NCBI GenBank assembly: GCA_964524845.1
Contig: CAZGFX010000003.1
Location: forward strand, 115,954-179,953
DNA length: 64,000 nt
Direction of reading: 5' to 3'
Source of the DNA: an uncultured Gammaproteobacteria bacterium
GTDB taxonomy: Bacteria; Patescibacteriota; Patescibacteriia; CAZGFX01
The notes under the pieces are model-generated. The model searched no databases, was not told the DNA's origin, and saw only the letters and a list, made by a program, of their open reading frames with translations. This document shows positions 8,160 to 41,624 of the stretch, piece by piece (position 1 is the first letter of the stretch; the number at the start of each line of letters is the position of its first letter). A program made the translations under genes and the position numbers.

Positions 8160-9137
8160 TATGAAAAGTGTGGAATTTATTAATAGAGTCGGTATCTTTT
8201 AAAGATTATATGACGGAATATAAATCCACACTTAATTATAAAAATGTGGTTGAGTTTTTGGGACGGTGTCACTTAGTGACTTCAATCTCCGTACTCAACC
8301 ACATATTGAACATTAATAAAAAATTATATATACCGCCTTGGGTTTATTAAGTAGCGAGATATTCTAAATAGAATTAACGAATGGTTTATAAACCCAGGGC
8401 AAAATTGTATTCCACGGATGATGTTTTTCAAACATTATTCGAAAGAATTTGTTCTTGATTACATCTCCGTGGAAAATTGTTTTACAAATCCCGCGAAGCG
8501 ATGGCGGAGCATGAGCATTGTCATGCTGAACTTGCCAGTCCTGAATGTAAATGAAGGATCACAGCATCTGCCGTGTAACTTTTGATAATATGAGCAGATC
8601 CTGAAAGGGCGCGGATCCTGAAACGACGCGGATCCTGAGACAAGCTCAGGACTAAAGGTTCAGAATGACGTTAAAAAAACAAGCCCGCCGAGCGAATCGA
8701 TGGCGGGGTATTCTCTAAGTGTTTTGTGTGGAGTTTATTATAAAGAAAGTATCTTCTAAAGATTAATAAATTTCTATAAATCCACACTTAATTATAAAAA
8801 TGTGGTTGAGTTTCGTTGGTGGTGTCACCTAGTGACTTTTAATCGGATACTCAACCACATATTGAACATTAATAAAAAATTATATATACCGCCTTGGGTT
8901 TATTTTCTTCGTCTTATTCTATTATAGAATTAAAAATATGATATGAACCCAGGGCGAAATTGTATTCCACGGATGATATTATTGAAATATTATTCAAATG
9001 AATTATAAACGCAGTCTATACTCCGTGGAAAGTTTTCTGTGTGGAATTTATTAACGGTGTAATATCTTTTAAAGATTGTTTTTCAATATATAAATCCGCA
9101 CGAACAGCCCCGTAGCATCAATGCTCGGGGTTTTTTA
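8160..9137 (+). ncRNA. Unit U1: two four-hairpin modules split by a ~220-bp dispersed-repeat insertion, then a terminal A hairpin and terminator (9107-9137)
   Basis: Module palindromes 'gtcacttagtgac' (8268) and 'gtcacctagtgac' (8826). Terminator 'ccccgtagcatcaatgctcgggg' plus T6. Confidence 0.5.
8488..8708. repeat. Dispersed-repeat block C inserted at a module boundary inside U1
   Basis: Shares a ~60-nt near-identical segment with 11304-11366: 'cattgtcatgctgaacttgccagtcctgaatgtaaatgaaggatcacagcatct(g/a)ccgtgtaactt'. Bounded by 'gcgaagcgatggcgg' and 'ccgccgagcgaatcgatggcgggg'. It replaces the usual 'gttttct' D-to-A linker. Confidence 0.6.
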
Positions 9138-9141
9138 ATAC

Positions 9142-9170
9142 TTGACAAGATAATATAAACAAGCTAAAGT
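9142..9170 (+). promoter_or_regulatory. promoter of unit U2
   Basis: 'cttgacaagataatataaacaagctaaagt'. Confidence 0.45.
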
Positions 9171-9171
9171 A

Positions 9172-10216
9172 GTATGAAAAGTGTGGAATTTATTATGCGT
9201 TTTCGTATCTGAAAAGATTGAAAAAGGGGTATAAATCCACACTTAATTATAAAAATGTGGTTGAGTTTTTTCTTCCCATGTCACTTTGTGACTTAAGAAA
9301 CAATACTCGACCACATATTGAACATTAATAAAAAATTATATATACCGCCTTGGGTTTATTAAAATAATACTATTCTACATAGAATTATGAAAAGCATATG
9401 AGCTCAAGGCAAAATTGTATTCCACGGATGATATTAACAGAAAAATATTCAAATGAATTATCAAGTTGGATATATCTCCGTGGAAAGTTTTCTGTGTGGA
9501 ATTTATTAGCGGCGCAATATCTTTTAAAGATTATGTATAGAATATAAATCCACACTTAATTATAAAAATGTGGTTGAGTTTTAGTAAAAATTGTCACCTA
9601 GTGACTTTTCCGATCGTCCTCGACCACATATTGAACATTAATAAAAAATTATATATACCGCCTTGGGTCTATTGTAGAAATTATATTCTGTATATAATTA
9701 AATCATTATTATGAGCCCAAGGCAAAATTGTATTCCACGGATGATATTAACAGTAAAGTATTCAAATGAATTATCAGCCACATCTATCTCCGTGGAAAGT
9801 TTTCTGTGTGGAATTTATTAAAATAATACTATCTTTTAAAGATTAATGTTTATTTATAAATCCACATTTGATTATAAAAATGTGGTTGAGTTTTTGGGAC
9901 AGTGTCACTTAGTGACTTCAATCTCCGTACTCAACCACATATTGAACATTAATAAAAAATTATATATACCGCCTTGGGTTTATTAAAATAATACTATTCT
10001 ACATAGAATTATGACAGGCATATGAGCCCAAGGCAAAATTGTATTCCACGGATGATATTAAGAGCGTCATATTATAAAATAATTATTGATATTATATGTC
10101 TCTGTGGAAGATTTTTTTGTGTGGAATTTATTAATTGACAACTATCTTTTAAAGATTGTCTCTCCATGTATAAATCCACACGAATAACCCTCTTCATCAT
10201 TCGGAGAGGGTTTTTT
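9172..10216 (+). ncRNA. Unit U2: three four-hairpin modules (palindromes at 9278, 9593 and 9908), then a terminal A hairpin and terminator (10188-10216)
   Basis: Same conserved stems with different loop segments. The last D hairpin is degenerate. Terminator 'ccctcttcatcattcggagaggg' plus T6. Confidence 0.5.
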
Positions 10217-19900: not shown

Positions 19901-20290
19901 TTATAACATAATGTTTTTTAAATGCTCTATCTTCAATTGATTTTTGGCTTTCTTTTCTATAAAAAGTCCGTCAATTCGAACAGACTGTACCCACGGATGG
20001 GCCAAAATATAATAATCAACCATCATATATAGTTTTTTCATTTTTTGCTCATTAATTGCATATATTCCGCCTCCGAACTGGCTTGTTCGCCTCAGTTTCA
20101 CTTCAACAAAAACATGTTCTTTCGTATCTCCATCAACAGCAACAATATCTATCTCTCCACATCGTGCATATACATTCCGACCAACGATCATATAACCGCG
20201 AAATTGTAAATATCGAACAGCGATTTGTTCACCAAATGATCCGAGTTTTTTCGCACCGCGGAAACTACTTTTTGAAATTTCTTTTTTCAT
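19901..20290 (-). CDS. YraN-family (UPF0102) putative endonuclease
   Basis: 'GEQIAVRYLQFRGYMIVGRNVYARCGEIDIVAVDGDTKEHVFVEVK' matches the UPF0102 consensus. Confidence 0.8.
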   Translation of the reverse strand: MKKEISKSSFRGAKKLGSFGEQIAVRYLQFRGYMIVGRNVYARCGEIDIVAVDGDTKEHVFVEVKLRRTSQFGGGIYAINEQKMKKLYMMVDYYILAHPWVQSVRIDGLFIEKKAKNQLKIEHLKNIML

Positions 20291-21072
20291 ACTCCATTAA
20301 TATTATTTTTAACGGTGTTCCATGCGAGCGGATTTCGACGAATATATTCTCTTGTTCTGTATAATTCTTTTTCATCCCGAATAATTCGATCATAAAACAA
20401 TGATTGCCATGCGAAATCAGGATTTATTTTTTTTCCACATTTTGTCACTCCTATTTTAAAACCTCGAATTATTGATGCTATATTGAGAGACTGTGGGCCA
20501 AATCTATTACCAGTGCTTTGTTTGGCAAAATTCTGTGGAGATATAGTAGCCTGTGGTGGAGACACAATAGCCTGTGGAGACACAATAGCCTGTGGAGACA
20601 CAATAGCCTGTGGAGACACAAAATTTTGTGTCTCCACAGTCTTCACAGAAAAAACTGTTTTTTCAAAAGATTGTGTCTCCACAGTCTTCACAGAAAAAAC
20701 TGTTTTTTCAAAAGATTGTGTCTCCACCACAGACTTTTCAAAAGATTGTGTCTCCACAGAATTTTGCCCTTTCAAAACCTGTTTTCTTACCTTGTATTTT
20801 ATCCGAATGATGCCATGAATATGATCTGGCATAACAACAAAAGCATCAACTGATACATGTCTGAAATGTTTTGGTATATCCAACCAACAACGACGAACAA
20901 TATATCCCAATCGCGAATATTTCATCTTTATTCCGCATATCTCACCGAAATAATGAACTCTGTTTTTGGTACATATTGTAATGAAATAATATCCGGGAGA
21001 CGAATAATCCCAAAACGGCAATCGTGTTGACGAAATCCTATATATTCCACGAAAATATAATTTGTTTTTCAT
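20287..21072 (-). CDS. REP-associated tyrosine (Y1, IS200-like HUH) transposase with an in-frame ~100-aa repeat insertion
   Basis: HUH motif 'MPDHIHGII'. N-terminal 'YYFITICTKNRVHYFGE'. C-terminal 'QSLFYDRIIRDEKELYRTREYIRRNP' (Y1 transposase). Between them lies 'VETQSFEK...VSPQAIVSPQAIV', encoded by DNA tandem repeats. Confidence 0.7.
   Translation of the reverse strand: MKNKLYFRGIYRISSTRLPFWDYSSPGYYFITICTKNRVHYFGEICGIKMKYSRLGYIVRRCWLDIPKHFRHVSVDAFVVMPDHIHGIIRIKYKVRKQVLKGQNSVETQSFEKSVVETQSFEKTVFSVKTVETQSFEKTVFSVKTVETQNFVSPQAIVSPQAIVSPQAIVSPPQATISPQNFAKQSTGNRFGPQSLNIASIIRGFKIGVTKCGKKINPDFAWQSLFYDRIIRDEKELYRTREYIRRNPLAWNTVKNNINGV
20500..20790. repeat. Intragenic tandem and palindromic repeat cluster: 18-nt 'cctgtggagacacaatag' x4, the perfect palindrome 'ctgtggagacacaaaattttgtgtctccacag', and a 45-nt unit x2
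   Basis: Read directly from the sequence. Inverted copies of 'ctgtggagacacaa'. The reading frame stays open. Confidence 0.85.
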
Positions 21073-21153
21073 AAAAATAAAACACCATGCTCAATGGTGT
21101 TTTGCTGGGAAATGATACGCTCAATGTAAAATTAAGACGATTCTTTCAAAATA

Positions 21154-23602: not shown

Positions 23603-24220
23603 TTATATTTTTCTGTTATTACAAAAACTTACAAGCGGTTCAAAACTCATTCTATGAATAGGACATGGACCATGCTTATATATTGCTTCAACGTGTTTCT
23701 CTGTACAATATCCGACATGATGATCAAAACCATACAGAGGATACTTTTCAGACTCTTTTGTCATAAGAGTATCGCGATATACTTTTGCGATAATGCTGGC
23801 CGCGCCAACACATTTATACTTACTATCACCTTGTATTTCGTTTTTATATGGAACCTCTTTGTGTTTCGCGAGGCGCCCGCGATCGAGAACAAAGCCCTTC
23901 ATAAAATCAGAAATTATTATATCAATTGTCGTGTTCACAGAATTGATAATATCATAAACGAGATTATACTGCGCTTGCACGATACCATCTCGGTCAATCA
24001 CTTCCGCGGGCGCCTCGCGAATGAAGCACTCAACAGCATGTTCTCTAATAAAAACATCAAGCTCGTTCCTTTTCTTTTTTGTGACAAGCTTCGAATCTTT
24101 AATATGCTGAAAAAAATCATCTGTTTCACAATCTGCGCACATGACAACTCCTCCGACAACAATCGGTCCCGCGACACAACCCTTACCAACCTCATCAATA
24201 CCAAGAATAAATGTGCTCAT
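23603..24220 (-). CDS. rnhB: ribonuclease HII
   Basis: 'ILGIDEVGKGCVAGPIVV', 'DSKLVT', 'ASIIAKVYRD', 'GYCTEKHVEAIYKHGPCPIHRMSF'. Start placed at the internal Met 'MSTFILG'. Confidence 0.85.
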   Translation of the reverse strand: MSTFILGIDEVGKGCVAGPIVVGGVVMCADCETDDFFQHIKDSKLVTKKKRNELDVFIREHAVECFIREAPAEVIDRDGIVQAQYNLVYDIINSVNTTIDIIISDFMKGFVLDRGRLAKHKEVPYKNEIQGDSKYKCVGAASIIAKVYRDTLMTKESEKYPLYGFDHHVGYCTEKHVEAIYKHGPCPIHRMSFEPLVSFCNNRKI

Positions 24221-24316
24221 AATAATATTATATATCAGAAGAATTAATCCGTACAATTGACCATAATTACCCTCTTCTTCTAAAAAATCAACAAATCTCA
24301 TTTAAAAATTAGAAAT

Positions 24317-38323: not shown

Positions 38324-38809
38324 ATGCGAACAAACTCTTTCAGACTTCTTACAACATCACTGGCCATAGCAAGTATTTTGTTTGGTTTGTTGCAGACAGA
38401 TTCTTTGGCATATGCCAAAGAATCTACTGTGCACCAAACAAGCGAGAGAATGCTCCTCGCACAAACAACAACTCAACCGAACACATTCGGACTTGATGAA
38501 TCAAAAGTTGAATCCGGAGTAAAATTTACGGAAGGATCTCCTTACTCATTAATCGGAATAGTCATCAATGTAATACTCAGTTTTCTTGGAATCATATTCT
38601 TAGTCATAGTTATATATGCGGGCGTACTATGGATGACTGCGAGCGGAAACAGCGATCAGATTAAGAAGGCGAAAAATATGATCCAAAACGCTATAATCGG
38701 ACTTATTGTTGTCGCGATGGCATATATCATTACTCAGAACATATATGATCTCATAACGACAAAACTCCCAAGTGGAACCGGAAATCAACAACAGACACCA
38801 ACCCAATAA
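38324..38809 (+). CDS. T4SS pilin-like small membrane protein
   Basis: 'IIFLVIVIYAGVLWMTASGNSDQIKKAKNMIQNAIIGLIVVAMAYII'. Confidence 0.65.
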   Translation: MRTNSFRLLTTSLAIASILFGLLQTDSLAYAKESTVHQTSERMLLAQTTTQPNTFGLDESKVESGVKFTEGSPYSLIGIVINVILSFLGIIFLVIVIYAGVLWMTASGNSDQIKKAKNMIQNAIIGLIVVAMAYIITQNIYDLITTKLPSGTGNQQQTPTQ

Positions 38810-41571: not shown

Positions 41572-41589
41572 AACATACCCAATAAGAAA

Positions 41590-41624
41590 ATCCGTCCCGT
41601 GTTACGGGACGGATTTATTTTTTT
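41590..41624. terminator. strong bidirectional intrinsic terminator closing the pilin array
   Basis: 'atccgtcccgtgttacgggacggat' plus 'ttattttttt'. Confidence 0.7.

Follow-up and report, generated by a model that had tools for sequence, protein, structure and literature searches.

A gene that very probably belongs to TnpA_REP subclass 2.4, which corresponds to Group 4 of the tyrosine transposases associated with a repetitive extragenic palindrome (REP), known as RAYTs, is found in a 64,000-nucleotide stretch of contig CAZGFX010000003.1 from an uncultured bacterium. This whole stretch is referred to here as the window. The gene carries a "double-foot" REP of the cognate type within its own coding sequence, in the part that encodes the β3/αC loop of the enzyme. 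The assignment is drawn from sequence comparison together with a structural model. The open reading frame (ORF) at 20287..21072 is that of a genuine, probably functional RAYT, and not a broken transposase, the site of a hit by a transposable element of the miniature inverted-repeat kind (MITE) or an assembly error.

The gene and its motifs are as follows, in window coordinates. The structural reference is Protein Data Bank (PDB) entry 4ER8, the E. coli TnpA_REP protein in complex with a REP hairpin (Messing et al. 2012, PMC3479197).

20287..21072, minus strand: RAYT/TnpA_REP-type Y1 HUH gene from the ORF list, 261 amino acids, ATG start, single copy in the window.
20815..20823, minus strand: HuH motif H84-I85-H86 within MPDHIHGII, located from the translation; H84 and H86 are invariant in the alignment, and the motif aligns to HMH of 4ER8.
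20503..20814, minus strand: linker, residues 87-190 (104 amino acids), the variable β3/αC loop, predicted to be disordered.
20488..20502, minus strand: FGPQS motif F191-S195, the first invariant block past the linker and the start of αC; the predicted local distance difference test score (pLDDT) exceeds 90 from approximately residue 195.
20404..20409, minus strand: W222-Q223 (WQ motif), invariant and aligned to WQ of 4ER8.
20329..20346, minus strand: Y motif YIRRNP with the catalytic tyrosine Y243; Y243, N247 and P248 are invariant, and the motif aligns to DYIYINP of 4ER8.

A preliminary description of this DNA had recognized a RAYT/IS200-like Y1 protein by two peptides, MPDHIHGII and YDRIIRDEKELYRTREYIRRNP, and had considered the region of the catalytic tyrosine to be retained. 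Both peptides are present in the 261-residue translation of the minus-strand ORF, the former near residue 81 and the latter near the C-terminus. In an alignment of 31 of the 4413 homologues found by database search (alignment A1), the invariant positions are H84, H86, the FGPQS block, W222, Q223, Y243, N247 and P248. The WQ motif is the counterpart of W94-Q95 in the GTAG-binding region of E. coli TnpA_REP, as given in the sections of PMC6006769 drawn on here. A search of the PDB with the alignment profile returned 4ER8 as the single sequence match (E 9.5e-7), and 4ER8 is likewise the top fold match of the AlphaFold model, with the IS200/IS605 transposases next. The alignment to RAYT and TnpA relatives that had been proposed as a check places the HuH half and the WQ/Tyr half on 4ER8, on either side of the linker. 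Sequence and model support the identification of the window gene as a RAYT/TnpA_REP-type Y1 HUH enzyme with its catalytic motifs retained, as the preliminary description had it. A tblastn search of the window found no second RAYT copy.

The same description had put the protein at about 100 amino acids longer than typical RAYTs. This is correct only in comparison with E. coli TnpA_REP (165 amino acids). Among the best 120 matches of the 4413 homologues, protein length has a median of 199.5 amino acids and a range of 172-307, and the window protein is approximately 60 residues longer than the median of its own family. Its linker of 104 residues is the longest among the 70 linkers listed. In the AlphaFold model, this linker is placed past strand E84-91 and ahead of helix H198-213. 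The pLDDT is above 90 at residues ~25-95 and 195-250, which form the core, and falls to ~37-64 at residues ~96-190, where no secondary structure is assigned. The model thus predicts an intact catalytic core and a disordered loop.

The DNA of the linker is built of 18-, 45- and 30-nucleotide repeats. These had been described beforehand as a repeat cluster with a perfect 32-nucleotide palindrome; the repeats are real, but their layout is that of one nested composite palindrome, with the following parts.

20524..20768 (245 nucleotides), no strand assigned: composite nested palindrome between the HuH motif and Y243, with five arms on one side, four on the other and outer perfect ends of 18 nucleotides.
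20535..20621, plus strand: array of GTGGAGACACAA arms with an 18-nucleotide period, starting at 20535 (degenerate), 20556, 20574, 20592 and 20610, from Tandem Repeats Finder (TRF), a 12-mer search and the arm map.
20626..20757, minus (coding) strand: four GTGGAGACACAA arms at 20626-20637, 20671-20682, 20716-20727 and 20746-20757, from the same three sources.
20610..20637, no strand assigned: 28-nucleotide "double-foot" REP GTGGAGACACAAAATTTTGTGTCTCCAC, the core of the 32-nucleotide palindrome at 20608-20639, translated as VETQNFVSP.

The inventory of arms comprises four exact GTGGAGACACAA arms per strand, one degenerate arm and the perfect 32-nucleotide centre, which was located by a palindrome scan. 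All eight occurrences of the 12-mer GTGGAGACACAA (four per strand) lie within 20556-20757, and shuffled sequences lead one to expect 0.09 occurrences. The arms of the plus-strand array are right arms on the coding strand and are translated as (A)IVSPQ repeats, while the coding-strand arms belong to units of 45, 45 and 30 nucleotides that encode VETQSFEK(TVFSVKT). TRF reports a period-18 array at 20556-20621 (3.7 copies, 100% matches) with a degenerate extension to 20535, a period-45 array at 20619-20727 (2.4 copies, 96% matches) and a period-30 stretch at 20705-20765. The 18-nucleotide unit had been counted four times, which is roughly right: it is exact twice (20571-20588 and 20589-20606), carries a GTG insertion once and is merged into the palindrome once.

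The centre has the double-foot form, GTGG AGACACAA AATT TTGTGTCT CCAC, with 14/14 positions paired, and its 28 nucleotides fall in the 20-40-nucleotide size range of such REPs. At the periphery, the outer arms at 20524-20541 and 20751-20768 were found by a repeat search to be perfectly complementary over 18 nucleotides. The GTG insertion of three nucleotides in one arm is mirrored as CAC in the partner arm 146 nucleotides away, which suggests an inverted duplication or a hairpin-templated correction. Folded as single-stranded DNA, the repeat region reaches -86.5 kcal/mol (z = -13), a value equalled by 0/100 shuffles. A small A/T hairpin, with the coding-strand sequence GAAAAAAC-A-GTTTTTTC, is present in each spacer unit, and these appear as side hairpins in the predicted fold. 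A/T-only palindromes are seen at 20648-20664 and 20693-20709, one per 45-nucleotide unit, and are read as EKTVFSVK.

The reading frame is preserved across the 312 nucleotides of the linker, so that the C-terminal FGPQS, WQ and Y..NP motifs stay in frame. The repeat region is also free of stop codons in two frames of the plus strand. The earlier remark that the ORF stays open is true, but an open frame is less telling than the retention of the frame, as the repeats lack stops in other frames too.

The element is not confined to the window gene. Eighty homologous loci were taken from GTDB genomes, and the palindrome counts cover 69 loci. The eighty span Bacteroidota, Balneolaceae, Ignavibacteria, Patescibacteria, Elusimicrobiota, Omnitrophota, Cloacimonadota, Spirochaetia, Cyanobacteria, methanotrophic Gammaproteobacteria and others. 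The peptide VETQNFASL is found in the linker of nearly all aligned homologues, and the DNA behind it is a 28-nucleotide palindrome, GTAGAGACGCAA-AATT-TTGCGTCTCTAC, with the general form GTAGAGACGCAA-NNNN-TTGCGTCTCTAC. A palindrome was called where at least 10/12 stem positions paired, with at most three mismatches to the consensus arm. By this measure it lies within the linker loop in 59/69 loci from many phyla and in none of the shuffled loci. It occurs within 300 nucleotides of the ORF in 23/69 loci and more than 1 kb from the gene in 6/69. The last group amounts to 16 copies in 935 kb of flanking sequence, of which 10 lie in a single tandem array. A covariance-model search agrees with these counts of placement. 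The in-gene copy is consequently the most constant REP copy of the family (59/69, versus 23/69 flanking and 6/69 distant).

Which frame is read, and which centre the palindrome has, follow the clade of the protein. The palindrome is therefore old and co-inherited with the gene, and not an insertion peculiar to the window gene. The comparison of orthologs for the insert that had been suggested finds the 28-nucleotide palindrome in the same loop of those 59 loci. The proposal that a REP-like element had inserted in frame into its own mobilizer was correct as to the kind of element, while the notion of a one-off or new insertion does not hold, since these loci share it.

The tandem array mentioned above lies at 7950-9961 of locus L025, on a Candidatus Cloacimonadales chromosome (OY762463.1). 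It has 11.3 copies of a 179-nucleotide unit (91% matches), each containing two REP-like palindromes of the same family with opposite "foot" orientation. It stops ~40 nucleotides upstream of the RAYT homologue, and resembles a bacterial interspersed mosaic element (BIME) array beside the gene. A separate observation concerns annotation. The N-terminal extensions of P0073 and P0040/P0125 and the C-terminal extension of P0036 are gene calls that run through flanking REPs and thereby yield spurious VETQNFASL peptides. Such over-extension of the ORF through flanking REPs is a recurrent annotation artefact of this RAYT family.

Conservation of the element is seen at the level of the DNA. Where the palindrome is read in frame 0 (43 loci), synonymous-codon entropy over its nine codons is 0-0.3 bit, with GCG used in 40/40, ACG in 37/39 and CAA in 42/42 cases. 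In the same genes, with a GC content of 31-49%, the entropy at the invariant FGPQS/Y/N/P residues is 1-2 bits for codons with four- or six-fold degeneracy and 0.4-1.0 for two-fold ones. The stem also covaries. In a palindrome set chosen for pairing, double-sided changes occur in 7/12 pairs and 96% of cells are paired, with 0/500 shuffles as high, and pairing falls to 28-59% in slid controls. The window element itself carries two such double changes, A:T to G:C in the foot (GTGG/CCAC) and G:C to A:T (ACA/GTG).

Two reading frames of the palindrome are in use. The frame-0 reading, VETQNFASL, accounts for 44 copies, all in the "G" clade, and the second-frame reading, xRDAMHCVST (centre TGCA), for 10 loci, all in the "A" clade, the clades being named for the residue after the HuH motif. 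The second frame is also read as CRDAKFCVST in P0098 and CRDTKFCVST in P0089, and the third frame holds TAG. Since the synonymous sites are frozen, the changes in the stem compensatory and two reading frames used, selection acts on the palindrome DNA and not on the encoded peptide. A link between the GTGG foot and an H-to-R change in WQxxFYD[HR]IIR was considered and dropped, as DR variants also occur with palindromes of the GTAG type (..ASL).

The number of arms is far less constant than the palindrome itself. In clusters of 90% identity, protein lengths differ by whole repeat units. P0182, P0180, P0119 and P0179 have 201, 211, 221 and 231 amino acids and hold three to six copies of SLETQDFSPH; they are 96-97% identical to P0119 and differ in units of 10 amino acids. 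P0170 and P0007 (217 and 235 amino acids, in one 90%-identity cluster) are one 18-residue unit apart. The near-identical P0173, from the P0007 cluster, has a frameshift immediately 3′ of the in-gene REP and is truncated, a sign that repeat changes that break the frame do arise and disable the gene. Extra half-arms beside the full palindrome are common, with three to five core 10-mers in the gene in 12 of the loci that were validly counted. The window gene, with its eight exact arms and one degenerate arm, stands at the extreme of this amplification. The alternative raised earlier, an evolving linker, is therefore partly borne out: the in-frame repeat is hypervariable, and whole units are gained or lost between proteins of at least 96% identity.

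There are some observations that weigh against the assignment to a REP-bearing RAYT. Both curated profiles score the window protein under their cut-offs (16.8 bits against 23 for Pfam Y1_Tnp and 52.3 against 80 for NCBIfam REP_Tyr_transpos), because the insert splits the profile match. The precomputed Pfam match is missing in most homologues too, and REP_Tyr_transpos is the sole NCBIfam family match of the window protein. With filters off, family model R1 has no match outside the gene in the 64-kb window, and its single match is the in-gene copy (44.7 bits, E 4e-10); a classical REPtron or dispersed REPs are thus not seen in this stretch. Nor does any REP flank the window gene in the manner of a REPtron-like layout (~1 kb). 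In the family, flanking REPs are frequent without being universal, given the 23/69 loci with a copy within 300 nucleotides. The palindrome accordingly has one trait of REPs, association with a RAYT gene, by lying inside one, and lacks another, that of many dispersed and mostly extragenic copies, as the 64 kb hold none beyond the gene itself. The preliminary description had named the lack of further palindrome copies as evidence against its proposal, and the search within the 64-kb window did return none. As the family has a low REP density outside the gene, the missing window copies do not count against the identity of the element as a REP.

Among the homologues, the palindrome is missing from the linker of a few members (e.g., P0078, P0084, P0088 and P0099) and is decaying in L008 and L030, which implies that the element is dispensable to the protein. 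Lastly, entry into the palindrome set required at least 12 of 14 positions to pair, and the statistics on pairing and covariation are inflated by this choice. The results on frames and codons are not tied to the pairing filter in the same way.

A mechanism can be proposed for how the palindrome persists. It may serve as the single-stranded DNA recognition site of the enzyme itself, with binding and cleavage as predicted activities. Its placement within the gene would tie the REP physically to the RAYT, and selection on the protein would shelter the copy. Arms could be gained and lost on single-stranded DNA during replication through slipped-strand or hairpin mispairing. Alternatively, the RAYT could change the arms through its own cleavage and rejoining at feet beside CT/CC dinucleotides. 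In the window, CT precedes every arm, and the complement of the foot contains CC and CA, the dinucleotides that the model in PMC8266576 predicts for a guide of GTGG. This context fits RAYT cleavage at the arms, although the fit is suggestive only. Selection would then keep only those length changes that are multiples of three. Two of the three frames of the palindrome contain no stop, and owing to its symmetry this holds in either orientation. The peptide repeats (VETQSFEK..., IVSPQA...) would be passengers.

Other explanations differ in what they take the palindrome to be doing. It has been considered that it is a cis-regulatory hairpin, by which autorepression through the gene or mRNA hairpin, or ribosome stalling or RNA processing, would keep a potentially genotoxic nuclease at very low levels. 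This would refine the preferred reading of a RAYT with its own REP, and is unlikely without being far-fetched. Nucleotide-level conservation independent of the peptide speaks for such an element, as does an in-gene copy that is the most constant (59/69, against 23/69 flanking and 6/69 distant). The amplified version also folds very stably, with a central palindrome that scored as terminator-like on the coding strand. However, some family members are without the element, and arm number varies freely among near-identical genes, which would be odd for a tuned regulator. A more doubtful reading holds that the in-gene REP is no tolerated insertion but the ancestral "master copy", kept by selection, of a REP-RAYT unit that is minimal and complete in itself. 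The enzyme would act on its own coding sequence while this is single-stranded, and its cleavage and rejoining, in place of plain replication slippage, would drive the rapid in-frame turnover of arms and so rewrite a loop of its own gene. The hairpin would also throttle expression, and in most hosts of the lineage the REP population would be little more than the gene and its immediate flanks. A recent chance hit by a mobile REP/REPIN or MITE from elsewhere in the genome, with the frame kept by luck, is improbable. The 18-nucleotide perfect terminal inverted repeats would suit it, and REPs are known to insert into genes, as noted in the sections of PMC6006769 drawn on here. Yet the same loop is occupied in 59/69 distant homologues, frame and centre track the clade, and the 64 kb contain no further copy. 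A metagenome scan with the 14-mer CTGTGGAGACACAA returned at least 120 loci with a single chance match each, none with the full palindrome, the pattern being too short to inform on the source genome.

Two explanations remain. If the region were a decaying pseudogene or an assembly artefact (a foldback or chimera), it would be open only since repeats lack stops. In keeping with this, several frames are open through the repeats on both strands, palindromes are easily misassembled and there is no record of the exact protein elsewhere. This is nonetheless highly improbable: the spacers differ between the two sides (18 nucleotides against 45/30), so that there is no simple foldback, the frame is kept over 312 nucleotides with the invariant C-terminal motifs in frame, the same architecture is seen in independent assemblies, and the gene is translationally coupled to yraN through an ATGA overlap. 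Scarcely credible is an ordinary low-complexity protein linker, in which VETQNF[AV]S[LP] would be selected, growth would come from slippage and the palindrome would be incidental. A linker predicted to be disordered and repeat units in multiples of three are what it would produce. Against it, synonymous positions are nearly invariant in the motif and randomized at invariant residues, and other members have the second-frame readings RDAMHCVST or RDAKFCVST. Amino-acid changes are paired and complementary (in the window, ACG to ACA with GCG to GTG and GTA to GTG with CTA to CCA), and copies of the palindrome lie in flanks outside the ORF. Taken together, the sequence comparisons effectively refute it. 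An intein, an intron and a programmed frameshift were also rejected, as the frame is continuous, the alignment of homologues resumes past the linker as it runs before it and no supporting feature is present.

The immediate surroundings of the gene contain two further features.

19901..20290, minus strand: yraN/UPF0102 gene (Pfam UPF0102 4e-22), whose ATG overlaps the RAYT stop codon by four nucleotides (ATGA, 20287-20290).
21079..21103, minus strand: terminator-like hairpin of the upstream gene from a terminator scan, six nucleotides before the RAYT ATG; it has no R1 match and is not a REP.

This hairpin reads AAAACACCAT-TGAGC-ATGGTGTTTT and is followed by a T-run. The RAYT may be insulated from transcription of the upstream gene, or may be expressed by read-through only. 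Its neighbours are the housekeeping genes uvrB, tmk, trigger factor, nusA and rnhB. The last of these (RNase HII, 23603-24301) lies ~2.5 kb upstream on the same strand, which, with the yraN overlap, places the RAYT in the common rnhB-yraN neighbourhood. Other hairpins and perfect palindromes of the window fall outside the REP family, namely one of 28 nucleotides, AGATTCTTTGGCATATGCCAAAGAATCT, at 38398-38425 and stems of 12-13 bp at 2516-2546 and 41588-41616. An Rfam scan of the 64 kb gave no family at the gathering score and not one tRNA, and no known RNA over the repeat region. The GC content of the window is ~30-37% throughout.

Replicators that are domesticated or "nested" have REP/RAYT systems as a model. 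How the REP and the RAYT stay linked is a question to which the family-level numbers add detail beyond the description of 2018. The constancy of the in-gene copy, its conservation as DNA across phyla, the use of two frames, the turnover of arms and the scarcity of distant REPs suggest that this copy is actively maintained. For annotation, it follows that VETQNFASL and RDAMHCVST should be treated with caution, as they are translated palindromes and not protein domains. The unusually long linker of the window RAYT can be annotated as REP-derived.

The system that is closest to the window gene is TnpA_REP subclass 2.4, which Quentin, Siguier, Chandler and Fichant (2018, BMC Genomics 19:475, PMC6006769), in the sections drawn on here, equate with the RAYT Group 4 of Bertels. 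In those sections, the subclass is described as having double-foot GT[AG]G...C[TC]AC REPs inside the gene, in frame, in the stretch from the HuH motif to the Y motif, and as having an insertion of 8 amino acids where αB ends, and the part of Table S1 used here gives the 28-nucleotide REP GTAGAGACGCAATGCATTGCGTCTCTAC for a 2.4 member. The window gene shares this arrangement, with its double-foot REP at 20610-20637 and extra arms in frame between HuH and Y, along with the WQ motif and a variable β3/αC insertion of short DNA repeats. The HuH consensus given there is NH[IFV]H, and the window reads DHIH, with D for N as in P0004, P0017 and P0074. The Y consensus is YIxNNP, from which the YIRRNP of the window is one position off (R for N). 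The window gene differs from the subclass in being without flanking REPs, and from its family in having a GTGG foot, an A:T pair in place of the G:C usual in the family, and an extreme amplification of arms within the linker. Its closest relatives (~45% identity) include a metagenome-assembled genome of Patescibacteria, a lineage that is not among the subclass 2.4 hosts named in those sections, and the host genome looks to be small and low in GC. For Group 4, ~14 genome-wide occurrences of flanking 16-mers have been reported (Bertels et al. 2017, PMC5581495), and the low REP density outside the gene here is consistent with this count.

The E. coli TnpA_REP protein, a member of RAYT Group 2 that is accompanied by REPs and BIMEs, has in common with the window protein the Y1 HUH fold and a WQ...R region that reads GTAG. 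Both genes are single-copy, domesticated and situated among housekeeping genes. The substrate of the E. coli enzyme is a GTAG-footed single-stranded DNA hairpin, with cleavage at an adjacent CT and strand transfer in vitro (PMC3479197, PMC8266576). The mechanistic data on the GTAG guide, CT cleavage and single-stranded DNA strand transfer come from RAYT Groups 2 and 3 (Corneloup et al. 2021, PMC8266576). Whereas the REPs of E. coli number in the hundreds, lie outside genes, have bulged stems and flank the gene, the only REP of the window lies in the gene and has a perfect symmetric stem. The E. coli protein, unlike that of the window, has no β3/αC insert in its 165 amino acids.

The catalytic fold and the HuH/Tyr chemistry are also those of the IS200/IS605 TnpA proteins (IS608, ISDra2), to which the fold match of the window protein is weaker than that to 4ER8. 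These transposases recognize subterminal single-stranded DNA hairpins, with a guide of four nucleotides 5′ of the hairpin. They are mobile, multi-copy and ~130-150 amino acids in length, with hairpins at the element ends, whereas the hairpin of the window is in the ORF. An IS200/IS605 insertion sequence was rejected as an identity for the locus on account of its single copy, the lack of element-type terminal hairpins and of tnpB, the housekeeping neighbours and the yraN overlap. There is a further resemblance to REP insertions in unrelated genes and to in-frame minisatellites of the contingency type, in which palindromic or tandem DNA is tolerated in a flexible loop as whole-codon units. The difference is that the host gene here is that of the recognizing enzyme, and that the element is kept at one site across phyla and is not sporadic. 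A literature search found no later publication on in-gene REPs. The window gene is, then, an extreme example of an arrangement published in 2018, and not something new.

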